A DNA stretch of 64,000 nt from Isurus oxyrinchus (taxonomy: Eukaryota), in NCBI GenBank assembly GCA_026770705.1, contig JANJGN010000121.1, forward strand, positions 1,054,001 through 1,118,000. The letters are read 5' to 3'. Both the position numbers and the translations under genes were made by a program. Positions 3,234 through 62,188 of this stretch are shown here, in pieces. Position 1 is the first letter of the stretch. Every line of letters starts with the position of its first letter. Under the pieces are notes generated by a model. The model was not told the origin of the DNA. It searched no databases and saw only the letters and a program-made list of their open reading frames with translations.

Positions 3234-3315
3234 AGTTTGAGAGTCAGAAGCTAAAGGAATATCTGGGAGTGGACAATAATTGGGAAATATTACTGCCTCC
3301 TGTCACTTCTCCAAG
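3234..3315 (+). pseudogene. Gene A leader (signal peptide) exon, apparent start codon reads ATA
   Basis: Acceptor ctttctctttcag ending 3233, donor G|GTAAT at 3316; 3276-3315 reads (I)IGKYYCLLSLLQ + phase 1, joining in frame to VGLSQEW; same SLLQ ending as gene C leader; in-frame TAA at 3252. Confidence 0.75.
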
Positions 3316-4180
3316 GTAATATCATCGTCAGCTCAGACAGATTTATGGTTAATAGTCTTCGTAAAAGATCATTCTTATTGAGCTGTGATTCGGAACCAAT
3401 TCAGCAGTGACCCAGTGCACAAACTCACACCAACTCCCATTCACCCATCACCCCTGTGCTCCCTGATATACACTGACTCCCTGTCTGACAGCAGAATTGG
3501 GGGAGTGCAGAGATCACAGAGGGTTGTAGGTTTGAGTAGGTTACAGACACAGGGAGTGGAGCGGAGTGATGGAGGAATTGGAAATCAAGTGTGATAAATA
3601 ATCACATCGAGGTGTTGTTGGACTGGGAGCCAGTGTAGGTCAGCGAGTGACTTGTGGGGTCGGGGTGGGTGTGTGCGGAGGTGAAAGCTTGAGTGGAAAA
3701 TTGGACACAAAATTCAGGGGATGAAGTCTATCTTGTGGCTAGCACTCTGACAGCAATGGCCTGAAATTAGTGTCTTTTGCTGATTTTAGTCAGAATTTCC
3801 CATGAAGACAACACAGCAGCTCCTAGAATAGACAGGCTGTTCAGTGTCACACTTCCTGTCCATTCTCACCATGCTAGATACTTCAATAAGGGAGCAAGAT
3901 AACTGAAAGAGAGAAGGAAGGTAAAGCTGTCCGTGTGTAAAGGTGTCAATATTCAGTTTGTATATTTGTCTTTCTCTCGACACATGCAGAGCTCAGGCTA
4001 GAGGCACTGTGTTAGTGTGTTTCACAGTGTCTGCTGGAGTAGGGTCAGTGCTGAGCTTGGGGACAAGTCAGTCTACAATGCTGCATCGGAATCAACAATA
4101 CAACAATATGGGGTTTGGATCAGAAATAATCCCTTAGACAATGAGGATCCAGGGTTAAATATTGATATTTCTCTCCACAG

Positions 4181-4549
4181 TTGGACTGTCACAAGAGTGG
4201 AAAGGTGAAACTCCACGAGAGGTGACAGCGCAGGAAGGTTCGTGTGTACAGATTCCATGTCATTACAGTTATCCATCGTGTCTGGAAAACCAACAACGAG
4301 GTGGAGTCTGGTTTAATAATGAGGAACAGATTCCCTGGGCTCCCATTGCCTTTCACTCCAAGGATCACAGTCACGAGTTACCACGGTTCCACCATCGGAC
4401 CCGGCTGTCTGGAGACCTGAAAGATGGCGACTGTTCCCTGATTATAAACAACATCAGACGGGAAGATGCAGGACCTTATTATTTCAGAATAGAATTTGAC
4501 AATGGTCCGAGCCATAACTATTACCCTGTAACCCAGCTTCACATTTCTG
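4181..4549 (+). CDS. Gene A exon: Siglec V-set Ig domain with the essential Arg
   Basis: 369-bp phase 1-1 exon (ctctccacag| ... G|GTAAGT); CVQIPC, GDCSL, EDAGPYYFRIE motifs give the Siglec Cys pattern and F-strand Arg. Confidence 0.95.
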
Positions 4550-5863
4550 GTAAGTGCTGTGTTATAATTACTCAACAATTCACATTCAACACTCAATGGG
4601 AAATAACACAAACTGTGACGTTTACATATTAACACAAAATACAGTTTATTATAACAGACTGTCTGATTCTCAATAACCTGGTGATAGCTTCCAGTTCAGT
4701 CCTAAAGCAACCTCTAATACTCACTTTAATATCAATGATTAAATGTATTGACTGTGTCCATCAATGTTATCAGGTTATCCACTCCCATTAGTCTCCCTAA
4801 TGCTTTTTAAATGTCTAACAATATGACAAACGAAGGATGTGCATTCCTATAGCGCCTTACACCACCTCAGCAAACTTCAAATCACTTCACAGACAATGAA
4901 GAAATTCTTGAAGTATAGTCACTGTCTAACGTGGCAGTGAGTTTGTGCACAGGAAGATCCCATAGAGAGCAATGGGATCAGTGACCCAGATCTCTGAGAG
5001 AATGATGAGCCAGGGTTCCATGAGCTGTGGACTGCTCCATCACCCACACCCCAGTGTTGGCAATTCAAGGGTCTGGGAGTGAAAGTGTATTCAGCTCAGT
5101 GACACATTCCCCACCAAGTTTGAAAATAGGAAAGTTGCTGCTGATTGTTGTGACCTCTCAGTTCCCATCTCATCCTTGGAAACCTGCTTTCAAAATACAA
5201 AACCAAGTCTCGCATTTCCATAGCGCCTTTCACCACCTCAGGACGATCCTAAATCGATTCACAGCCAATGAAGTGATTCTTGAAGCACACATTCTCCCCA
5301 CTCTCTGGTTAAAGAAGTTTCTCCTGAATTCCCCATTGGATTTATTAGTGAGGATCTTATATTGTCAGCCTCTGGTTTTGTTCATTGTGAGGAGTGGAAA
5401 CACTCTCTCCATGTCTACTCGATCAAAACCTTTCACTACTTCAAAGGTCAAATGAGGCCACCCCTCAACCTTCTCTGTTCAAGAGAACAGAGACCCAGCC
5501 TGTACATCCTCTCCTGATAGGTAAAGCCTCACATTGCTGAGATCATCTTGTGAAGCTTTTTACCACCCTCTCCAGTGTCTCCATATCCTTTTCCAAATGC
5601 TGAGTCTGTTCTCCCCGAGCTGTGAGCTGTTCCTCCACCCTCACCCAGTCTGGTCAAATCAAGGGTCACTGAGTGAGCGTGTATTAATCTGAGTGACAGA
5701 GATTCAACAAGTGTAAAAATAGACAATTCTTTAATGATCATTGTAACCTCTCAGTTCTGATATCATCCTTGTAAAAGTGCTTTCTCGTGTGGGACTGTGG
5801 TTTCTATTTGAACTGATGCTTCACGTTATATTTCTCTAAAAGGATCCATTCTCTGTGTGTTAG

Positions 5864-6160
5864 ATTTCACAGATAAACCCACGATATTCCCTGCTGAAAT
5901 TATTGCAGGAAAGCGTGTGGATGTAAGCTGCACCTTCAACACAACGTGCAATGGAACAGCAGCACCTGTCTTAACCTGGGACACTCCCACTGACGTACCT
6001 GGATCAGTCTCAAACACTGTAACTCAGCATGGTGTCACTCTGACCTATACTTCTGTTCTGACCCTGATCCCATCACTCAAACACCACGGACACACTCTCA
6101 GCTGCAGAGTGAGATATCCATCTGTTTCATCGGAGCGGACCCTCGTACTGACTGTGCTAT
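5864..6160 (+). CDS. Gene A exon: Siglec domain 2 (C2-set)
   Basis: 297-bp phase 1-1 exon; DFTDKP, CTFNTTC (inter-domain Cys), PVLTW, HHGHTLSCRV. Confidence 0.95.
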
Positions 6161-6329
6161 GTAAGTACAAACACCCTTCAATCTACATTAGTTGGAATAG
6201 TATCAAATGTGCACAGCAAGCTCCCACATACTGCACTTTGTTTATAAACAAACCATTGGTATTTAACTGGTAAAAAGTGACCCCTGACAGGCAGTACATC
6301 CTTACTACTGACTCTCCGACAGTGCATCA

Positions 6330-8060
6330 TGGACTCATAGACTCATAGACACTTACAGGACAGAAGGAGGCCATTTAGCCCATCATGTCCATGCTGGTCA
6401 GCAACTCCCTCCCCAAGTGCATCACCTCACATTTTTCCAGGTTGAATTCCATTTGCATCGTGATCATTTCCCCTTTATATAAGTCCAATTCATTTATATA
6501 CACCACAAACAGCAAGTGCCCCAGCACTTTGCCCTGTGGAACCCCACTGGAAACAGACATCCAGTCACAGAAACATCCCTCCACCATCACCCTCTGCTTC
6601 CTGCCTCAGCCAATATTGGATCCAACGTGCCACTTTGCCTTGGATCCCATGGGCTCTTACTTTCTTGGCCTCTCTGCCAAGAGGCACCTGATCAAAAGCC
6701 TTCCTCAGCCCATGTCGACCACATCAAAGGCATTACTCTCATCAACACTCCTGGTTACCTCCTCAAAAGATTTGATCAGGTTTGTCAAACATGACCTTCC
6801 CTTAACAAATCCATGCTGAATATCCCAGATTAATCCTTGTCTCTCCCAGTGCAGATTCATTCTGTCCTTCAGAATTCTTACTAGTAACTTCCCCACCACC
6901 GAGGTTAGACTGACTGGCCTGTAATTTCCTGATCTATCCCTTCCTCCCTTTTTTAATAATGGGACAACATTAGCCATCCTCCAGTCCTCTGGCACCTCAC
7001 CTGTGGCCAGAGAGGATTTGAAAATTACTGCCAGGGCCCCTGATATCTCTTCCCTTTCCTCCTTCAACAGTTTTGGATTCATCTCATCTGGGCTTGTGGA
7101 TTTATCCACTTTTCAGGCCACTAAACCCACTAGTACCTCCTCTCTCTGTGTTAATTTCCTCTCATATTTCACTGCCCTCCACCCTGATGTTATACCTGCA
7201 TCATCCTTTTCCATTGTGAAGACTGATGCAAAGTATTCATTGAGGACTGTACCCACGTCTTCCAGGTCCACACACACATTACCTCGATGGTCCCTAATCA
7301 GCCCCACTCTTTCCCGAGTTATTCTCCGGCTCTTTACATATTTAAAAAACCCCTCTGGGTTTTGCTTTATTCTACTCACCAGTGCTTTCTCATGCACTCT
7401 CTTATCTTTCCTAATGTCCTTTTTCAGTTCCCCTCTGCACTATTTATACTCCTCTAGGGACTCTGCTGTATTGAGCCCTCAGTATCTGCCATCAGCTTCT
7501 CTTTTTTCTCAATCCTAACCTTTATGTTCCTTGTCTTCCAGGGTTCTCCAGACTTGGTCTCCCTCTTTGTCTTTACAGGAAGATATCTGCTCTGTACTCT
7601 CGCTATTCCCTCCTTGAATGCCTCCCACTGCTCTGACACAGTTTTATCTGCAAAGAGCTTCTCCCAGTCCACTTGGGCCCAATCATATCTCATCTTAGTA
7701 AAATTAGCCTTTCCCCAGTTTAGAATTTTTATTCCCAGCACAAACTTATCCTTCTCCATAACTGTCCTAAATCCAATTGAGTTACAGTCACTATCTCCCC
7801 TACTGATACGCTTTCCAACTTCCCCGGCGCTTTTCCATATATTAGGTCCAGAACTGTCCCCTCCCTTGTTGAGCTTTCTATGCACAGGCTAAAAATCTTC
7901 TCCTGGATGCAACTTCAGAATTTTTCTCCCTCCCTACCTTGCTCACTAAAGCTGTCCCAGTTAATATTTGGGTAGTTAAAATCCCTGAGTATTACTGCTT
8001 TATTATTCTTACACATCTCTGAAATGTGATCACATGTTGGATTGTCCATCTCTCCCTGAC
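6330..8060 (-). mobile_element. CR1-type LINE fragment (ORF2 remnants) in gene A intron
   Basis: ORF 6705..7109 (PEDWRMANVVPL, NYRPVSLTSV, QHGFVKGRSCLTNL) and 6375..6590 (SGVPQG..YINEL). Confidence 0.9.
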
Positions 8061-8148
8061 TGTTTGTTGGTTTTATATCTTGAGTCTATGAGTTCACTGG
8101 TTGAGTAAACTCGAATTGCACTCCTTCATATACACTTGTTAGTTGATA

Positions 8149-8350
8149 AAAACAAAAAAACTGCGGATGCTGGAAATCCAAAACAAAAACAGAGTTACCT
8201 GGAAAAACTCAGCAGGTCTGGCAGCATCGGCGGAGAAGAAAAGTGTTGACGTTTCGAGTCCTCATGACCTCAGTTCTGTCGAAGGGTCATGAGGACTCGA
8301 AACATCAACTCTTTTCTTCTCCCCCGATGCTGCCAGACCTGCTGAGTTCT
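8149..8350. repeat. Palindromic dispersed element (probable Penelope-type terminal sequence)
   Basis: Inverted repeat centred on TTTCGAGTCCTCATGACC...GGTCATGAGGACTCGAAA; partial copies at ~13255-13350, 20281-20430, 27395-27480 and next to the Penelope ORF at ~47120-47187. Confidence 0.6.
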
Positions 8351-8617
8351 TCTTAGCTGATGCTCGCTATCAATAACCAAGAGAGACCGACATTAGAACA
8401 AGCTGATTATTTATTGTAACAGAGGGCAGAGCACTAAATCCTTGCCTGCTCCCACAGCCACCTCCAGCTCTAGACTTACAGTTAACCAGTGGCCCACACT
8501 GTCCAGTGATTGGTCAGTACTGTCACATGGTTTATCCACTTGTATTCTCTTAAAGGTACCTGGCACTCCACATTATCACAGGAGGCCTATAGTACACACA
8601 TAACAGCGTGTTTGCCT

Positions 8618-9120
8618 CCTCAGCACTGACCCTTCTACAGTGCAGCACTCCCTCATTACTGACTCTCTAATAGTGTAATGATCCCTCAGTAGTGCTCCTC
8701 CAACATTGCACTGGTCAATCAGAACTGACGCTCTGACTGTGCAGTTTTACCTCAGCAGTAACCCTCCTACAGTGCAGGGCTCCCACAGTACTGTCCCTCC
8801 TACAGTGCAGCGCTCCCACAGTACTGTCCCTCCTACAGTGCAGCACTCCCTGTCCCTCCTACAGTGCAGCACTCCCTCAGAAGCGAACATTTGACAGTGC
8901 AGCACTCCTTCAGTAATGACCCTCCAACAGTGCAGATCTCCCTCACTACTGACCCTCCGACAGTGCAGCATCCCCTCAGGACTGACCCTCTGACAGTGCA
9001 GCACTCCCTCAGTACTGAACCTCTGGCAGTGCCACACTCCCTCAGTACTGACACACTGACAGTGCAGCACTCCCTCAGTACTGACCCTCTGACAGTGCAG
9101 CACGCCCTCAATACTGAACT
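8618..9120 (+). repeat. 33-bp minisatellite array
   Basis: Tandem units; source of spurious TVQHSLSTDP-type ORFs. Confidence 0.9.
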
Positions 9121-9249
9121 GAAGTGTCTGCCTGGATTACGGGCTATGTGGTGAAAGAACGTACATTGACATCACACCTTTCACATTCTCAGTGTCTTTC
9201 AAAGTGCTTCACAGTCAGTGTAAGTTAACTGATCTGTATTTGTTTTTAG

Positions 9250-9531
9250 ACGCACCACGGAATCTCTCAATTTCTTCTCCAGATATGATTAACGCTTCAT
9301 CGATCAATATAATTGAGGGGAATTCTGCAGTGATAATCTGCTCTGTCGAGAGCTCCCCAGCTTCTAACCTGACGTGGCGACATCTTAATGTCCCAATGAA
9401 CAGAACAAGTTCCAACAATGAGCTGTGGTTGGTGATTCCTCACGTTACATCCAGGGACACTGGAGAATATCAGTGTGTGGCAGAGAATGAACATGGAGCA
9501 GTGGAGGGGTTCATAACCATCACTGTGGAAT
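9250..9531 (+). CDS. Gene A exon: third Ig domain (C2/I-type)
   Basis: 282-bp phase 1-1 exon; YAPRNL, CSVESSPASNLTW, DTGEYQCVAEN. Confidence 0.93.
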
Positions 9532-11237
9532 GTGAGTGTACACAGACTTTAATATTTCTCTCATCTCCAAACACAAATATTCAGATGCTCTCCCACGCAC
9601 ACACACACAAGCACTCACAAATGTACAGACCCAAAGTGCATGCACACACACAATCCCACACTCATGAGCACACAGAAAGACACACTCACACACTAACTCA
9701 GTAGTACACACTCCCCTGTGAGTTACCTGACCTCCCTCAGTACTGCACTGGAGAGTTCTCCTGGATTCTGGGATATGTGTTCCCATTCATATTTATCGAA
9801 GAATATCCAAATTACAAAGTCTATTCCAGAAACTCACATGCACAAAGATTCCAACTGATACTCCCCACCTCTCCGTGTATCTCTCTCCTCCTTTAAGAAG
9901 CTTCCTAATCCCTAACTCTTGCCTGTCCTAACTCCTCCTTATAATGCCCTGTGACAAATTTTTTGTGTATCTGAGAGAAAGGGAGAGATAAGGAAGTTTA
10001 GGAAGGGATTTCCTGTTAGTGAAGAGCTTACTTCATTTTCTCACCTTTCCAGTGTTCAGTTTTGCCATCATGTCCAATGACCCTGTTTATAATGGGGGCA
10101 ACATATGTAAACGTCACACTGTCTTTACATCCTCCCACCAGTGATGGCACTGTGGTGCTTAACCTTGCACCTCCCAGCTTTTCAGCCAACTTCACTTCAC
10201 AATTTGCAACACATGCTGTAAGTTCATCGAAATTAACATATATATCAAATGGTAGATTTGATAATACAGTTTATTGAAAGATTCATCCGCGCTCTGGGAA
10301 GGGTTTACACTCTCCAGGAAGCAGGAATAGGCTGGATGTTGGGGAGTTCATCTTTTCCCAGAGAGTAGGGATCCTCGGGAATGTGCTGTCAGTGGGTGTG
10401 GTGGTTGCTGTCTCTCTGTTGCCTTCAAGAGGGATCTGGAGCGGTTACTAACTGGGGGAGAGATCATAGAAGCGGAGAATGATACAGCACAGGAGGAGGC
10501 CATTCAGCCCATTGTGCCTGTGCCAGGTCTTTCAATGTTCTATCCAATCAGATCCACTAACCACCACTCCACTTTGCCCCCATCTTCCTCCTTCAAGTGT
10601 TAATCCAATTTCCCTTTTGAAAGTTCCTATTGAATCTGCTTCCACCGCCCTTTCAGGCAGCACCTTCCAGATCACAACAACTCGCTCTATCAAAACAAAT
10701 TCTCCTCATCTCCCCCTCCGGTTCGTCAATCTGTGTCCCTCTGGTTACCGACCCTCCTGCCCCTTAAATACATCGATACTGTTCACCTCAACCACTCCCT
10801 GTGGGAGCGAGTTCCACATTCTCCCCTCTCTCTGGGTAAAGATTGGAACTGTTTATTAAGCGGGGTGAGTAAGTCCGTGAGGGAGTCCATCTCGATCCTG
10901 CCCGATTCGCACACGCGTCCGAGATGGATTTCCACGCTGCACTAAACATTTCCAGAATTTTCTACAGCACAATCCTGTACACAGCGATGGAGAGAAACAT
11001 TGGACAGGGAGTCCAACAGCACAATGATCCATTCTCACCAATGTTCCACGCTAAGGGGAAAGTTCCGATTGTCCACTCTTAGAGTGTTTACAATGAAAAC
11101 ATTCATTCCACATTGAATCCCAGTGGATGGGTCAATATTACAGCAAATGTTGCAGTGATATGAAGCTTGATTGTTCAGCCAGAGTGAGAGATTGAAAGCG
11201 GAGAGTCAGTGATGATTTCTTTCTGTGTGTTCTCTAG

Positions 11238-11377
11238 ACAGTGGAGGAGAGATTCTGCACGTGATCCTGATCCTGGGAATACGAGCTGTGATATTCCTTG
11301 TGGCTGTGGTTATCACTATTGCTGGAGTCTGTGTCTGGGAGAGACAAACAGTGAAAGGAAGTCGACAGACTGTTTGA
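11238..11377 (+). CDS. Gene A exon: transmembrane helix with Arg plus short tail (activating-type)
   Basis: Acceptor ttctctag ending 11237; in phase it reads YSGGEILHVILILGIRAVIFLVAVVITIAGVCVWERQTVKGSRQTV*; Arg CGA 11282-11284, TGA 11375-11377; this frame is not in the ORF track. Confidence 0.85.
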
Positions 11378-11499
11378 AGCTTTGTACAGCAACAATCTGG
11401 TCAGTCAGTGCGGACAAATAACGTGTGATGTTGGGTTAAGTTGTAATGAAATTGGTCAGTGTCCTGGTTAGAATCACCTTCGTATCAGAGAGGCATTCC

Positions 11500-39923: not shown

Positions 39924-40005
39924 CTGGTGCTTCACAGAGAGTGAACTGGGGGTCAATGCAATGTCACTGGTCCCTGAAACTCTCTCCTCCATCGCTGTCT
40001 TTCTC
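39924..40005 (-). CDS. Gene B distal juxtamembrane cytoplasmic exon
   Basis: 82-bp phase 2-0 exon RKTAMEERVSGTSDIALTPSSLSVKHQ; splice sites intact. Confidence 0.85.
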
Positions 40006-41152: not shown

Positions 41153-41401
41153 TCAGTTATGCTCAAACCTGATCTGTGCGTATTCCGTCTCCTCTTCCCT
41201 GTGGACAGACCCATCACCACTGGACACCCTCAAAACTTGGGGATTGGCGTAGAGAAACTCTTCAGGTTTGCCAGGGTTCCCATGTCCAACATCGCCTCCC
41301 ACTGGACCTTCAGAGAGACCCCGGGGAGCTGGGGTCTCCCCCTCGCTAGTTGTGTCTCTGGTTGTGTTCCGGGCCTCAGTAATCAGCACGTTCTGTTTAC
41401 C
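41153..41401 (-). CDS. Gene B proximal terminal exon: degenerate ITIM (FLYANP) plus ITSM (TEYAQI)
   Basis: 249 bp, phase 0; GKQNV...EEFLYANPQV...EETEYAQIRFEHN*; AATAAA on minus strand at 40628-40623. Confidence 0.9.
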   Translation of the reverse strand, partial: GKQNVLITEARNTTRDTTSEGETPAPRGLSEGPVGGDVGHGNPGKPEEFLYANPQVLRVSSGDGSVHREEETEYAQIRFEHN

Positions 41402-42518: not shown

Positions 42519-42600
42519 CTGGTGTTTCACAGAGAGTGGACTGGGGGTCAATGCAATGTCTCTGGTCCCTGAAACTCTCTCCTCCATCGCTGTCTTTCTC
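42519..42600 (-). CDS. Gene B proximal juxtamembrane cytoplasmic exon
   Basis: 82-bp phase 2-0 exon RKTAMEERVSGTRDIALTPSPLSVKHQ. Confidence 0.9.
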
Positions 42601-43323: not shown

Positions 43324-43420
43324 TTTCTCACACAGATGAAGATGAAGATTCCAGCCAGGAAAACACTCAACATGATCCCAGCCGTGAACAATCCTACTGT
43401 CCATTTACTGGAGTCTCTAC
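43324..43420 (-). CDS. Gene B transmembrane exon (uncharged helix)
   Basis: 97-bp phase 1-2 exon GRDSSKWTVGLFTAGIMLSVFLAGIFIFICVR(K); tttttacag acceptor, GTAAGT donor; too short for the ORF track. Confidence 0.92.
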
Positions 43421-44341: not shown

Positions 44342-44635
44342 CTTTGACCCACAGATACTCCTTGAACATGGCTTCCCCGTGTGGGTTTTGAACCGAGCAG
44401 GATGCCATCACTCCCCCCTCATCCTGGGGTCTCATCAGGGTGAGGGAACCAGTCACCAGATGCCCATCTCTGACCTGCCACGACACAAAACCTCCGTGTG
44501 TTTGGTTACCACTGATGTTGGCACTGGGCAGGTGCCAGGTGAGGTCTCCGGGTGGGTTGGAGTTGGCCACACAGATGCAGGTGACCCCCTCTGACCTCCG
44601 AGTGCACTCCGACTGCTGGGAAATCTCCGGCTTAT
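44342..44635 (-). CDS. Gene B membrane-proximal Ig exon (MAG domain-5 / CD33-related type)
   Basis: 294-bp phase 1-1 exon; YKPEISQQSECTRRSEGVTCICVANSNPP..CSVQNPHG, with the C-x8-C-x-C pattern. Confidence 0.92.
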
Positions 44636-45369: not shown

Positions 45370-45645
45370 ATTGTACGTTCAGGTGGGTGATGTTGGAGGT
45401 GCTGTTACCCACTGGGTTCCTCGCTGTGCAGTAGAAACCTGCATCATTCTCCCGTGTTACAGGAGTGAAGGAGAGAGTGCGGCTACTTGTGTTTAACTGG
45501 GTGCTGGTGTTCCCCTCGATCCTGAACCAGGTGTAATGAGATATCGGTGGGACACTTTCACTGGAGCAGGTTAATGTGATATTGCTTCCCTCTCTTATCC
45601 CACCTGAGGATCTGCTGATGGACACCATCGTCTCCTGTGGGGGAT
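45370..45645 (-). CDS. Gene B Ig exon (CD22/sialoadhesin-like C2)
   Basis: 276-bp phase 1-1 exon; YPPQET..EGSNITLTCSSESVPP..YTWF..FYCTARNPVG. Confidence 0.93.
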
Positions 45646-47515: not shown

Positions 47516-47797
47516 ATTCCACAGTGATGGTTATGAACCCCTCCACTGCTCCATGTTCATTCTCTGCCACACACTGATAGTCTCCAGTGTCCCTGGATGT
47601 AACGTGAGGAATCACCAACCACAGCTCATTGTTGGAACTTGTTCTGTTCATTGGGACATTAAGATGTCGCCACGTCAGGTTAGAAGCTGGGAAGCTCTCG
47701 ACAGAGCAGATTATCACTGCAGAATTCCCCTCAATTATATTGATCGATGAAGCGTTAATCATATCAAGAGAAGTAATTGATGGGTTCCGTGGTGCAT
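47516..47797 (-). CDS. Gene B Ig exon (second copy of the domain-3 type)
   Basis: 282-bp phase 1-1 exon, near-identical to 9250-9531 and 48702-48983. Confidence 0.93.
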
Positions 47798-48701: not shown

Positions 48702-48983
48702 ATTCCACAGTGATGGTTATGAATCCCTCCACTGCTCCATGTTCATTCTCTGCCACACACAGATAGTCTCCAGTGTCCCTGGATGTAACGTGAGGAATCA
48801 CCAACCACAGCTCATTGTTGGAACTTGTTCTGTTCATTGGGACATTAAGATGTTGCCACGTCAGGTTAGAAGCTGGGAAGCTCTCGACAGAGCAGATTAT
48901 CACTGCAGAATTCCCCTCAATTATATTGATCGATGAAGCGTTAATCATATCAAGAGAAGTAAATGAGAGATTCTGTGGAGCAT
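48702..48983 (-). CDS. Gene B Ig exon (first copy of the domain-3 type)
   Basis: 282-bp phase 1-1 exon; APQNLSFTS..DTGDYLCVAEN. Confidence 0.93.
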
Positions 48984-53524: not shown

Positions 53525-53821
53525 CTTGTACAGTTAGTACAAGGGTCCGCTCCGATGAAACAGATGGATATCTCACTCTGCAGCAGAGAGTGTGTCCGTG
53601 GTGTTTGAGTGATGGGATCAGGGTCAGAACAGAAGTATAGGTCAGAGTGACACCATGCTGAGTTACAGTGTTTGAGACTGATCCAGGTACGTCAGTGGGA
53701 GTGTCCCAGGTTAAGACAGGTGCTGCTGTTCCATTGCACGTTGTGTTGAAGGTGCAGCTTACATCCACACGCTTTCCTGCAATAATTTCAGCAGGGAATA
53801 TCATGGGTTTATCTGTGAAAT
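53525..53821 (-). CDS. Gene B Siglec domain-2 (C2-set) exon
   Basis: 297-bp phase 1-1 exon; differs from 5864-6160 at three residues (T/M, S/C, terminal L/Q). Confidence 0.95.
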
Positions 53822-54633: not shown

Positions 54634-55002
54634 CAGAAACGTGAAGCTGGGTAACAGGGTAATAGTTATGGCTCGGACCATTGTCAAATTCTATTCTGAA
54701 AAAATAAGGTCCTTCATCTTCCCGTCTGATGTTGTTTATAATCAGGGAACAGTCGCCATCTTTCAGGTCTCCAGACAGCCGGGTCCGATGGTGGAACCGT
54801 GGTAACTCGTGACTGTGATCCTTGGAGTGAAAGGCAATGGGAGCCCAGGGAATCTGTTTCTCATTATTAAACCAGACTCCACCTCGCGGTTGGTTTTCCA
54901 GACACGATGGATAACTGTAATGACATGGAATCTGTACACACGAACCTTCCTGCGCTGTCACCTCTCGTGGACTGTCACCTTTCCACTCTTGTGAGGGTTT
55001 AT
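54634..55002 (-). CDS. Gene B V-set exon, innermost (V1), Arg present
   Basis: 369-bp phase 1-1 exon DKPSQEW..YFFRIEF..LHVS. Confidence 0.95.
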
Positions 55003-56949
55003 CTGGGGAGAGAAATCTCAATATTTAACTCTGGATGGTTTGTGGATCCACTAGACTCAAAATTTACAGATGAGGCTGAATTGGGGGGATGGTCAATACT
55101 GAGGAGAATGGCAACAAATTATTTTGGCAGGAAGAATAGAAAAACAGGATATTATTTAAATGGAGACAGGCTGCAGAATGCAGTACAGAGGGATCTGGGT
55201 GTCCTTGTACATGAATCACAGAAAGTCAGCATTCAGGATCACCACGGAATGAGGAAGGCAAGTGGAATGTTGGCCTTTATTGCAAAGGGATGGAGTCTAA
55301 AAGGAGGGAAGTCTTGCAACAGCTGCACAGGGTGAGATTGTATCAGGAGCAGTGTGTACAGTTCTGGTCTCCTTACTTATGGAGGGATAGAGTTGCATTG
55401 AAGGCAGTTCAGAGAAGCTTCACTGGGCTGATACCTGGGATTAAAGGGTTTGTCCTGTGAGGAAATGTTGAGCAGGTTGGGCCTGTATCCATTGGAGTTT
55501 AGAAGAATGAGGGGTGACCTTATTGAAACATATCCGATTCCGAGGGGGCTTGACAGGGTGGATACTGGGAGGATGTTTCCCCCTCGTGGGGGAATCTAGA
55601 ACCAGGGAGCACAGTTTCGGAATGAGGGCTCTCCCATTTAAGACTGAGATGAGGAGGAATTTCCTCTCTCAGAGGGGCGCTAGCCTGTGGAATTCTCTTC
55701 CCAGTGGAGGCTGGGCCATTGAATAGACTCAAGGCTGAGTGAGGCAGGTTTTTGATCGACAAGGGAGTCAAGGGTTTGGGGGACAGGCAGGAAAATGGAG
55801 TTAAGGCCACAACCAGATCAGTGAGAGCAGGCTCGAGGGGCCGAATGGCCTGCTCCTGTCCCTATTTCTTATGTTCCTACATTCTTACCTTCTTAAAATA
55901 TTAAAGCTGCAGAATAAACATGCAAGTGACTGACCCGCTCGACCCACCTTCCATCAGGGGCTGGAGGAGGTTACACAGATAGGGAGGTTTGTGGGGGCTG
56001 GAGGAGGTAACAGAGATAGGGAGGGCTGTAGATGCTGGAGGAGGTTACGCAGATAGGGAGGGTGGTAGGACCTGGAGGAGGTTGCAGAGATAGGGAGGGC
56101 TGTAGGGATTTGAGGAGTTTATGGAGATGGGGAGCGCGTAGGGACTGGAGGAGGCTGCAAGGGCAGAGAGGGTTTTAGGGGCAGGAGGAGTTTACAGGGA
56201 TAGGAAGAGTTGTAGGGGCTGGACGGATTGCAGAGGTAGGGAGGGTTGGAAAGGCTGGTGGAGGTTTCAGAGGTAGGGAAGGTTGCAGGGACTGGAGGAT
56301 TTACAGAGATGGGGGAGTTTTTGGGGCAGGATGGGGTTACAGAGATAGGGAGGGTTGTAAGGGCAGGACGAGGTTACATAGATATGGAGTGTGGCTGGGG
56401 CTGAGGGAGGCTACAGAGTTAGGGAGGGTTATAATGGCTGGAGGAGGTTACAGAGATAAAGGAAACTCTTAGGGACTGGAGGAGGTTACAGAGATAGGGA
56501 GGGTTGTAGTGGGCTGGAGGAGGTTACAGAAATATGAAGGGTTGTAAGAGATGGACCAGCTTACAGAGATAGGGAGAGGTATTCGGTCTGGAGGAGGTTG
56601 CAGAGATAGGGGAGGTTGTTAGGACTGGAGGAGGCTACATATATCGCGAGGGTTATCGGGGCTTGAGGAGGTTAAAGAGATAGGGAGGGGTGTTGGGTCC
56701 GGAGGAGTTTGCAGTGATAGGAATGGTTTTCGGGATTGGAAGAGAGTACTGAGATAGGAGGGTTGTAGGGACTGGAGGAGTCTCCTGAGATAGGGAGGGT
56801 TGTAGGGACTGGAGGAGGCTCCTGAGATAGGGAGGGTTGTAGGGACTGGAGGAGGCTCCTGAGATAGAGAGGGTTGTAGGGACTGGAGGAGGCTCCTGAG
56901 ATAGGGAATGTTGCCGTGGATGAAGATAAAGGAGGAGATTACTGTAATA

Positions 56950-58184: not shown

Positions 58185-58553
58185 CAGAAACGTGAAGCTG
58201 GGTTACAGGGTAATAGTTATGTCTCGGACCATTGTCAAATTCTATCCTGAAAAAATAAGGTCCTGCATCTTCCCGTCTGATGTTGTTTATAATCAGGGAA
58301 CAGTCGCCATCTTTCAGGTCTCCAGACAGCCGGGTCCGATGGTGGAACCGTGGTAACTCGTGACTGTGATCCTTGGAGTGAAAGGCAATGGGAGCCCAGG
58401 GAATCTCTTTCTCATTATTAAACCAGACTCCACCTCGCGTTTGGTTTTCCAGACACGATGGATAACTGTAATGACATGGAATCTGTACACACGAACCTTC
58501 CTGCGCTGTCACCTCTCGTGGAGTGTCGCCTTTCCACTCTTGTGAGGGTTCAG
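58185..58553 (-). CDS. Gene B V-set exon, middle (V2), Arg present
   Basis: 369-bp phase 1-1 exon AEPSQEW..YFFRIEF..LHVS. Confidence 0.93.
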
Positions 58554-61500
58554 CTGGGGAGAGAAATATCAATATTTAACTCTGGATGGTTTGTGGATCC
58601 ACTAGACTCAAAATTTACTGATGAGGCTGAATTGGGGGGATGGTCAATACTGAGGAGAATGGCAACAAATTATTTTGGCAGGAAGAATAGAAAAACAGGA
58701 TATTATTTAAATGGAGACAGGATGCAGAATGCAGTACAGAGGGATCTGGGTGTCCTTGTACATGAATCACAGAAAGTCAGCATTCAGGAACACCACGGAA
58801 TGAGGAAGGCAAGTGGAATGTTGGCCTTTATTGCAAAGGGATGGAGTATAAAAGGAGGGAAGTCTTGCAACAGCTGCACAGGGTGAGATTGTATCAGGAG
58901 CAGTGTGTACAGTTCTGGTCTCCTTACTTATGGAGGGATAGAGTTGCATTGAACGCAGTCCAGAGGAGGTTCACTGGGCTGATTCCTGGGATTAAAGGGT
59001 TTGTCCTGTGAGTAAATGTTGAGCAGGTTGGGCCTGTATCCATTGGAGTTTAGAAGAATGAGGGGTGACCTTATTGAAACATATCCGATTCCGAGGGGGC
59101 TTGACAGGGTGGATACTGGGAGGATGTTTCCCCCTCGTGGGGGAATCTAGAACCAGGGAGCACAGTTTCGGAATGAGGGCTCTCCCATTTAAGACTGAGA
59201 TGAGGAGGAATTTCCTCTCTCAGAGGGGCGCTAGCCTGTGGAATTCTCTTCCCCAGAGAGCAGTGGAGGCTGGGCCATTGAATAGACTCAAGGCTGAGTG
59301 AGGCAGGTTTTTGATCGACAAGGGAGTCAAGGGTTTGGGGGACAGGCAGGAAAATGGAGTTAAGGCTACAACCAGATCAGTGAGGGGCCGAATGGCCTGC
59401 TCCTGTCCCTATTTCTTATGTTCCTACATTCTTACCATCTTAAAATATTAAAGCTGCAGAATAAACATGCAAGTGACTGACCCGCTCGACCCACCTTCCA
59501 TCAGGGGCTGGAGGAGGTTACACAGATAGGGAGGTTTGTGGGGGCTGGAGGAGGTAACAGAGATAGGGAGGGCTGTAGATGCTGGAGGAGGTTACGCAGA
59601 TAGGGAGGGTGGTAGGACCTGGAGGAGGTTGCAGAGATAGGGAGGGCTGTAGGGACTTGAGGAGTTTATGGAGATGGGGAGCGTGTAGGGACTGGAGGAG
59701 GCTGCAAGAGCAGAGAGGGTTTTAGGGGCAGGAGGAGTTTACAGGGATAGGAAGAGTTGTAGGGGCTGGACGGATTGCAGAGGTAGGGAGGGTTGGAAAG
59801 GCTGGTGGAGGTTTCAGAGGTAGGGAAGGTTGCAGGGACTGGAGGAGTTTACAGAGATGGGGGAGTTTTTGGGGCAGGATGGGGTTACAGAGATAGGGAG
59901 GGTTGTAGGGGCAGGACGAGGTTACATAGATATGGAGTGTGGCTGGGGCTGAGGGAGGCTACAGATAGGGAGGGTTATAATGGCTGGAGGAGGTTACAGA
60001 GATAATGGAAGCTTTTAAGGACTGGAGGAGGTTACAGAGATAGGGAGGGTTGTAGTGGGCTGGATGAGGTTACAGAAATATGAAGGGTTGTAAGAGATGG
60101 AGCAGCTTACAGAGATAGGGAGAGGTATTCGGTCTGGAGGAGGTTGCAGAGATAGGGGAGGTTGTTAGGACTCAAGGAGGCTACAAATATCGCGAGGGTT
60201 ATCGGGGCTTGAGGAGGTTAAAGAGATAGGGAGGGGTGTTGGGTCCGGAGGAGTTTGCAGTGATAGGAATGGTTTTCGGGATTGGAAGAAGGTACTGAGA
60301 TAGGAGGGTTGTAGAGACTGGAGGAGTCTCCTGAGATAGGGAAGGTTGTAGGGACTGGAGGAGGCTCCTGAGATAGGGAGGGTTGTAGGGACTGGAGGAG
60401 GCTCCTGAGATAGGGAGGGTTGTAGGGACTGGAAGAGGCTCCTGAGATAGGGAGGGTTGTAGGGACAGGAGGAGACTCCTGAGATAGGGAGGGTTGTAGG
60501 GACTGGAGGAGGCTCCTGAGATAGGGAGGGTTGTAGGGACAGGAGGAGACTCCTGAGATAGGGAATGTTGCCGTGGATGAAGGAAGAGGAGGAGATTACT
60601 GTAATAGGGAGGAAAAATATTCAAAAATTGTGACATTGAGACTTTGCTTGACCAGGAACCAGTCTCGGGACTTGGTGTGAGTAAGGACGTGGTCAGCAGT
60701 TTTGGATGGCCTCAAGTTTATGGAGTGTAGAGCGTGTGTTGGAACAGTCGAGTCTGGAGGTAATGAAGGCGTGGATGAGGGTTTCAGCAGCAGATGAGCT
60801 GAGACAGGGTGACGTCGTACAATGTTACGGAGGTGGAAATAGACGGTGTTAGTGAGGGCGCAGATATGAGGCCGGAAGCTCATCTCAGGATCAAATGGGA
60901 CAACAAAGCTGTGAACAGATTGGCTTCAATCTCAGAGAGCTGCCAGGGAGAGGAATGGAGTTGGTAGCGAGGGAACAGAGTTTGGAGCGGGGAATGAAGA
61001 CAATGGCTTCAGTCTTTCCAATATTTAATTGGAGGGAATTTCTGCCCATCCAGTACTGGATGTCGGATAAGCAGCCTGATAATTTAGCAGCAGTGGAGGA
61101 GTCGAGAGAGGTGGTGGTGAGGTAGAGCTGGGCATCCTCAGTGGACAGGTGAAAACTAAAACTGTTCAGATGATGCTGCAAAGCCATTGCAAGTGATTCT
61201 CTGGCTACGATGAGATGGATAAGAATGGAGCCAGGGGAGAGCAGTCCCACCCAGCTGGACGACAGTGGACAGGTGTTGGAGGAGGATGGTGTGGTCGAGC
61301 GTGTCAAAGGCTGCAGACAGATCGAGAAGGACGAGGAGGGAAAGTTGACCTTTGTCACAGTCACACAGGATGCCATTTGTGACCTTGATAGGAGCTGTTT
61401 CAGCACAGTGGCTGGGGTGGGAACCTGATTGGAGGGATTCAAACATGGAGATCCGGGAAAGATGGGAACGGATTCGGGAGATGGAAACACGTTCAAGGAC

Positions 61501-61810: not shown

Positions 61811-62188
61811 CAGAAACCTGAAGCTGGGTTACAGGGTAATAGTTATGGCTCGGACGATTGCCAAATTTTATCGTGAAAAAATAAGGTCCTGCATCTTCCC
61901 GTCTGATGTTGTTTATAATCAGGGAACAGTCGCCATCTTTCAGGTCTCCAGACAGCCGGGTCCGATGGCGGAACCGTGGTAACTCGTGACTGTGATCCTT
62001 GGAGTGAAAGGCTGTAGACCATTTAGACCATTTGTTCCGTATGTAGCTTCTCATTTTCCAGATTCCGACATGTGGTTTCTTTACCAAATCTGATGGATAA
62101 CTGTAATGACATGGAATCTGTACACACGAACCTTTCTGCGCTGTCACCTCTCGTGGAGTGTCACCTTTCCACTCTTGTGACAATCCAA
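61811..62188 (-). CDS. Gene B V-set exon, outermost in window (V3), essential Arg replaced by Thr
   Basis: 378-bp phase 1-1 exon VGLSQEW..YFFTIKF..LQVS; ACG at 61874-61872. Confidence 0.93.

Follow-up and report, generated by a model that had tools for sequence, protein, structure and literature searches.

The window, which is the whole 64,000-nt stretch of Isurus oxyrinchus DNA that was analysed, contains on its minus strand a gene for a Siglec-like receptor. Its exons were mapped with named white-shark and basking-shark proteins, and 12 of them join at canonical junctions into a reading frame of 1004 codons with one terminal stop (Table 1). The encoded plan consists of a leader, three V-set domains (V3, V2 and V1), five C2-type Ig domains, a transmembrane (TM) segment without charged residues, and a tail with tyrosine motifs. 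C2 Ig domains followed by a single TM and either tyrosine motifs or a charged TM residue are what defines the body of a Siglec, and the five Ig exons match those of named shark Siglec-like proteins. No V exon occurs in the 4.4 kb between the leader and V3, which makes V3 the outermost domain, as a sequence-only reading of this DNA had proposed.

Table 1. Exons of the Siglec-like receptor gene and landmarks of its outermost V domain.
Feature	Position	Strand	Remark
Leader exon	66618-66579 (extended coordinates)	-	Outside the window, 4.4 kb upstream of V3
V3 exon, outermost V-set domain (signal-peptide end and domain)	61811..62188	-	Thr at the Siglec essential-Arg site
B-C loop to C' strand	62013..62093	-	Outer-type loop, Trp-rich, net +6
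9-bp tandem repeat	62016..62033	-	Exact, in frame (KWS twice)
F-strand/F-G patch	61854..61874	-	Four alternate-residue substitutions R>T, E>K, D>G, G>R
ACG (Thr) codon at the essential-Arg position	61872..61874	-	
V2 exon, inner V	58185..58553	-	Arg kept (AGG)
V1 exon, inner V	54634..55002	-	Arg kept (AGA)
Ig C2-type exon 1	53525..53821	-	
Ig C2-type exon 2	48702..48983	-	
Ig C2-type exon 3	47516..47797	-	
Ig C2-type exon 4	45370..45645	-	
Ig C2-type exon 5	44342..44635	-	
TM exon	43324..43420	-	No charged residue (inhibitory type)
Cytoplasmic exon 1	42519..42600	-	
Cytoplasmic exon 2	41153..41401	-	Non-canonical FLYANP, TEYAQI, then stop
Cytoplasmic exon 1, second copy	39924..40005	-	
Cytoplasmic exon 2, second copy	38212..38460	-	LLYANI, TEYAQI

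In the tail exons, TEYAQI and LLYANI are, by their consensus motifs, what we take to be ITSM-like and ITIM-like sequences, respectively. The ITIM signature is among the motifs quoted in a teleost study (PMC7226832). The tail exons are duplicated (42600-38212, minus strand), and a white-shark protein joins two such tail units in frame; the first terminal tail exon has a possible internal donor ahead of its stop. In the first C2 exon, strand F reads Cys-Cys, where paralogues have Ser-Cys. The V3/V2 and V2/V1 units are tandem duplicates (95% and 97% identical), and a G-rich minisatellite was found in both inter-V introns (55950-56910 and 59500-60570).

Two other loci in the window carry V-type sequences. 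A single-V gene on the plus strand (3234-11380) keeps the Arg and has an activating-type TM with Arg; its leader reads Ile where relatives start with Met, so the gene may lack a start codon. On the minus strand, a distant V-set-like exon (26913-26506), Trp/Tyr-rich and 32% identical to V3, has a frame that stops just past the start of strand F; it could belong to another Ig family or be a broken copy. An extra Cys in the B-C loop, which marks inner-type V domains (68 of the 68 in-frame inner exons) and does not occur in outer-type heads, is present in V2, in V1 and in the single-V gene of the window.

The V3 exon is 378 nt long, the V2 and V1 exons 369 nt each; it is bordered by AG and GT and its frame is open, which agrees with the earlier statement that frame and splice sites are intact. 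The encoded domain passes the Pfam V-set and Ig_CD22 cut-offs. Its predicted model (pLDDT 84) has its best Foldseek matches in sialoadhesin, MAG, CD33, and Siglec-7, with a TM-score of about 0.8. Judging by this model, V3 retains the Siglec-type V-set fold, namely the sialoadhesin/CD33 fold that characterizes the N-terminal domain of a Siglec. An A-strand aromatic residue and three conserved cysteines are further features of Siglec V domains, and V3 possesses them: its W7 aligns with W2 of sialoadhesin, and across 60 sequences C27 and C88 are invariant, while C22 and W7 are nearly so. The closest solved structures are sialoadhesin and Siglec-5 for V3, and Siglec-5, Siglec-8 and CD33 for V1; the nearest named proteins are from lamniform sharks. 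The V-sets that match the shark V domains best in sequence and fold (sialoadhesin, MAG, CD33, and Siglec-5/7/8) are about 30% identical to them, keep the Arg, and lack the longer basic C-C' region of V3.

The essential Arg on strand F of the N-terminal V domain, by which Siglecs are recognized, is absent from V3, as the sequence-only reading had noticed. Thr occupies the column of the Arg of sialoadhesin (chain position 97), Siglec-5, and MAG, in which V1 has Arg; within this receptor, Arg at the site is found only in the inner V2 and V1. The codon is ACG in V3, AGG in V2 and AGA in V1, so the change from AGG to ACG that had been suggested is valid for V2 and not for V1. As Thr sits where Siglecs need Arg, V3 likely lacks canonical sialic-acid binding. 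By the criterion of an N-terminal Arg, the receptor fails strict membership of the Siglecs, yet its build is Siglec-like.

The face of V3 is basic, as had been claimed: the net charge (K+R minus D+E) is +9, against -3 for V2 and -4 for V1. The loop and F-G motifs earlier quoted for V3 are correct, and so is the clustering of changes in these two regions. V3 and V1 differ at 40 of 72 nt from B-C to C' and at 5 of 39 nt in F-G, compared with 2/84 in A-B, 2/126 in C'-E and 2/36 in G (6/246 in these three framework blocks together; F-G against the blocks, Fisher p=0.009).

The two regions differ in age. The framework of V3 is near-identical to that of V1, whereas its loop is old: V3-type outer loops also occur with Arg, both in sister heads and in the basking shark. 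One Arg-bearing sister head has a loop charge of +6, the same as V3, and a basking-shark protein combines the V3 loop and the 9-bp repeat with Arg at the site, which contradicts the earlier idea that the loop was rebuilt jointly with the loss of Arg. Because the loop occurs with Arg elsewhere, it is probably the older feature, the loss of Arg and the recharging of F-G being younger. Likewise, the tandem duplication proposed to explain the extra length of V3 is exact, in frame, and equal to the additional 9 nt, but the V1/V2 loop represents a different old lineage that does not align with it; the repeat is therefore better read against short outer-type loops. The novelty of V3 thus lies mainly in the F-G edge, where the local charge goes from -1 in V1 to +2 in V3. 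Each of the four possible pairings of a B-C motif with a site residue was found, which shows that conversion or recombination took place within the exon; together with a near-identical framework beside an old loop, this bears out the patchy conversion previously suggested.

The recharged edge could be a displaced binding site. In that case, V3 would bind sialylated or sulfated glycans via the new Lys (two residues after the site), the new Arg (six residues after it), or the basic C-C' loop, and the change would be a shift in specificity, not a new class of ligand. The new Lys and Arg indeed share the edge from which the old Arg disappeared. Moreover, Siglec-6 is described as binding sialylated glycolipids without the canonical Arg (PMC10122656), and many human Siglecs as binding 6-O-sulfated glycosaminoglycans on arrays (PMC13331776). 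However, mutation of the Arg is described as abolishing binding by Siglec-1, -5, -9, and -10 (PMC10122656), and the new Arg varies from one Thr head to another, with Gly in its place in many of them; we consider a shifted site improbable.

To place V3 among its relatives, 150 of the 1048 candidates from a protein search of the genome were scored. Searches with exact patterns counted 55 Thr/Met exons (48 ACG and 7 ATG), 586 Arg exons, and 194 uncharged (inhibitory-type) and 196 activating-type TM exons; these are pattern counts, which uncollapsed haplotypes may inflate, and those for the site codon are not exhaustive, since they missed two classes, ACA and the main Ser codon, which emerged only from fetched exons. 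The genome total is at least 58 Thr/Met exons. Exons were fetched with their flanks for the Thr/Met heads and for most of the remaining outer-type ones, so the sample is not random and is enriched for Thr/Met heads; one match on C6 and two heads on C1343 were left out of the reading. The site was readable in 259 of the 271 fetched V matches, the other 12 being partial.

A V exon was counted as first if the nearest exon upstream was a leader or another non-V exon, or if no V lay within 5 kb. In the fetched sample, the inner V exons had Arg without exception (112/112). Of first V exons followed by another V, 86 of 115 had a non-basic residue (Thr 50, Met 7, Ser 21, Gly 8) and 29 had Arg, whereas first V exons followed by C2 had Arg in 8 cases, Lys in 2, Ser in 1, and Thr in 1. 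Exons whose upstream region was not seen had Arg (16) or Lys (4), and these four Lys exons have inner-type upstream introns; altogether, Arg is replaced by Lys in 6 V exons that are either inner-type or single. Among the single-V genes, the Ser exon is interrupted by a stop, and the TM of one gene with Thr is frame-shifted. In intact tandem-V genes, non-basic site residues are therefore confined to the outermost domain. Thr/Met heads always occupy the first V position, with another V next in 57 of 58 cases, and the Thr heads are intact in 46 of 49. At C52:1871759-1887000 and similar loci, a Ser head is followed by about six inner V exons with a spacing of 2.3 kb.

So constant a position in front of Arg-bearing inner domains is what would be expected if V3 were a cap or spacer that shields these domains or tunes access to them, a shielding cap being the alternative offered by the sequence-only reading. 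Such a role would leave unexplained why the cap itself has a recharged, fast-changing face, and in an end-to-end Ig rod an outer domain is not expected to cover the side face of the next one; we regard this function as very improbable.

The site codons ACG/ACA/ATG, AGC, and GGA were found on different loop backgrounds. Taking codons and backgrounds as the measure of independence, Arg was probably lost at least three times, or four times should the two Gly backgrounds have arisen separately. All three head lineages have Arg-bearing counterparts in white- or basking-shark proteins. In other species, the site was read in 164 domains of 111 proteins, whose annotations may be incomplete: Arg was found in 149, Lys in 11, Tyr in 2, Ser in 1, Gly in 1, and Thr or Met in none. 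Further members of the white- and basking-shark clusters also had neither Thr nor Met, and a search for proteins of similar length returned three relatives, with Arg wherever the site was read. Shark and ray proteins automatically named Siglec-10/12/13, CD33-like, or MAG-like belong to the same family (at most 82% identity to V3), and tandem V domains are common among them; unlike V3, they have no Thr or Met at the site where it was read. In the mako, Ser heads have a mean charge of +0.3 and Gly heads of -2.6; being neutral or acidic, they indicate that loss of the Arg does not need a basic face.

V3 is not a one-off: its type of head is shared with dozens of sister genes of inhibitory and activating type. 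Pairing was judged by reading 16 chosen genes. Heads that differ from V3 by 2-3 nt were found on three short genes with a TM Arg (C52:313752, C71:1820205, and C121:324361), and also on genes with full tyrosine tails (the window gene, C150:463810, and C546:64103). Near-identical heads on inhibitory- and activating-type genes are the signature of paired receptors, and from their motifs the paired genes are predicted to signal in opposite directions. The activating-type TM has Arg in the shark; primate activating Siglecs couple to DAP12 via Lys. When their DNA was read, at least three genes (C52:745726, C52:3446209, and C71:1456011) proved to have been given the wrong TM type by the nearest exact pattern, and the tallies from that method are left out here. 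In three neighbour-type genes with Thr heads, Gln replaces the TM Arg. The upstream neighbour of the window gene (C121:1124307-1134228, minus strand) combines a different outer loop and the same Thr F-G patch with such an Arg>Gln change in an activating-type TM, and the same layout was found at C52:727692 and C52:3210092.

Transcript evidence came from sequencing runs none of which is recorded as RNA, the RNA status of X1 being a guess. In runs X1 and X2, contigs reach the ends of exons and there pass into sequence of a leader, V, or C2 exon, which indicates that the family is spliced in these runs; leader-V, V-V, and V-C2 joints were seen. At 85% likeness, a contig from X1 differs from the V3 loop region at 2 of 124 nt, over a stretch that does not distinguish Thr from Arg. 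At 97% likeness, the Thr codon was found in none of four runs (two samples), where a gap in the contigs proves nothing. These data bear on whether segmental duplication has merely multiplied copies of V3 that are decaying or not transcribed. Two genes, C52:745726 and C546:335434, have an identical or near-identical head and an uncharged TM without detectable tail exons, and together with the three Arg>Gln genes they would fit such decay. As the window gene is open throughout with canonical splice sites, and the contig with a V3-type loop comes from a run with spliced family contigs, decay is scarcely credible as a general account.

Selection was analysed with our own codon-model code on fixed segment trees (149 unique intact sequences; 20 exons skipped). 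Tree-based site tests, which the conversion present in these exons can inflate, favoured M2a over M1a in the 3' half of outer heads (LRT 53.9), with the Arg site in a class of omega 4.9 (posterior 0.99), and also in the Thr/Met heads alone (LRT 30.0). The inner 3' half gave a non-significant LRT of 2.4, and no signal was found in the outer 5' half, which contains the basic loop (LRT 1.5; omega 1.15). For F-G, omega was 2.97 in outer against 0.50 in inner domains (LRT 13.2, p=0.0003), and the outer value exceeded 1 (LRT 9.0 against omega=1). A conversion-robust count of distinct variants gave 18 non-synonymous to 2 synonymous in the F-G of Thr/Met heads, which is not significant (p=0.13), and a ratio of 1.0 across all outer heads. 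A Fisher test on exon copies was not used as evidence, because the copies are not independent. The positive selection proposed in the sequence-only reading thus finds support for F-G under tree-based models, but not for B-C/C-C' and not in the conversion-robust count; diversifying selection on the F-G face is suggestive, not settled.

Arg could have been lost with nothing gained. The distal Arg may have been dispensable, because the inner V domains retain theirs, or its loss may have been a way of evading sialylated pathogens. The variants would then have spread by drift, duplication, and conversion, and V3 would have no new ligand. The losses led to several unrelated residues on heads of any charge, which agrees with this account, as do the non-significant conversion-robust count and the history of human Siglec-XII, called 'forced to retire' after its Arg loss (PMC6288428). 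However, the Thr lineage has three more changes on the same edge, at alternate residues and all raising the charge; the F-G omega of outer heads exceeds 1, nearly all Thr heads are intact, and they are common to activating-type genes, to which a non-binding head would be of little benefit. On balance, loss without gain is possible but rather unlikely.

The reading that we favour, at about even chances, joins the observed anatomy, distribution, and pairing to a putative ligand, signalling mode, and selective agent; three or four losses are a small number, however, and the copies are not independent. V3 would have lost canonical sialic-acid binding and become a basic, diversified head that binds some other anionic ligand and is carried on paired chains, while the inner domains remained canonical. 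First, an old basic outer-type loop, common to the basking and white sharks, where it occurs with Arg, would have provided the background. Second, the F-G edge would have been recharged and the Arg lost. Third, the new head would have spread by conversion and duplication over inhibitory and activating genes. With the canonical site kept by the inner domains, the tip could vary without constraint and adapt to polyanions of microbes or of damaged self, and its activating twins could act as counter-traps, as has been proposed for Siglec-5/14 and Siglec-11/16. An extension of this reading to the whole family of several hundred genes is unlikely, though conceivable: its members would be two-tier sensors, in which the inner V domains would recognize sialic acid as a mark of self and the distal heads, released from the Arg three or more times, would make up a germline-encoded, diversifying set of binders of other ligands, the V3 lineage being a binder of polyanions or microbial surfaces on both types of chain.

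Loss of the Arg is already known from single primate genes, where it is often read as decay. The V3 gene resembles human Siglec-XII (SIGLEC12), described as having tandem V-set domains of which the first lacks the essential Arg (PMC7379906, PMC6288428). Siglec-XII is, by these accounts, one gene that is read as retiring and has frequent null alleles; in contrast, the shark has at least 58 mostly intact Thr/Met heads in addition to the Ser and Gly lineages, and its gene has three V domains and a recharged face. The primate pairs Siglec-5/14 and Siglec-11/16 share with the shark genes the near-identical heads on inhibitory and activating receptors, which in primates are said to be kept alike by gene conversion. 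According to the same two sources, the Arg was lost in great-ape Siglec-5/14 (PMC6288428, PMC7379906), and Siglec-5 is described as being engaged by a bacterial protein without sialic acid. The primate pairs are two, with a single V in each receptor, whereas the shark has roughly 194 inhibitory-type and 196 activating-type TM exons; primate activating-type TM segments are also reported to couple to DAP12.

A lone Arg-less exon is thus ordinary for Siglecs, and what is notable is the recurrent, position-restricted, amplified, and paired pattern. In the shark, the loss recurs, is limited to the outermost domain as regards non-basic residues of intact tandem-V genes, exists in many amplified copies, and is common to paired receptors, so the family is a natural system in which to ask whether Siglec domains without the Arg have retired or been put to new use. 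A literature search, which covered few subscription journals and had the supplements on whale-shark Siglec families outside its scope, returned no paper on the shark family. The teleost study describes fish as lacking inhibitory CD33-related Siglecs (PMC7226832); a shark with about 390 paired Siglec-like TM exons bears on the question of when such families arose.
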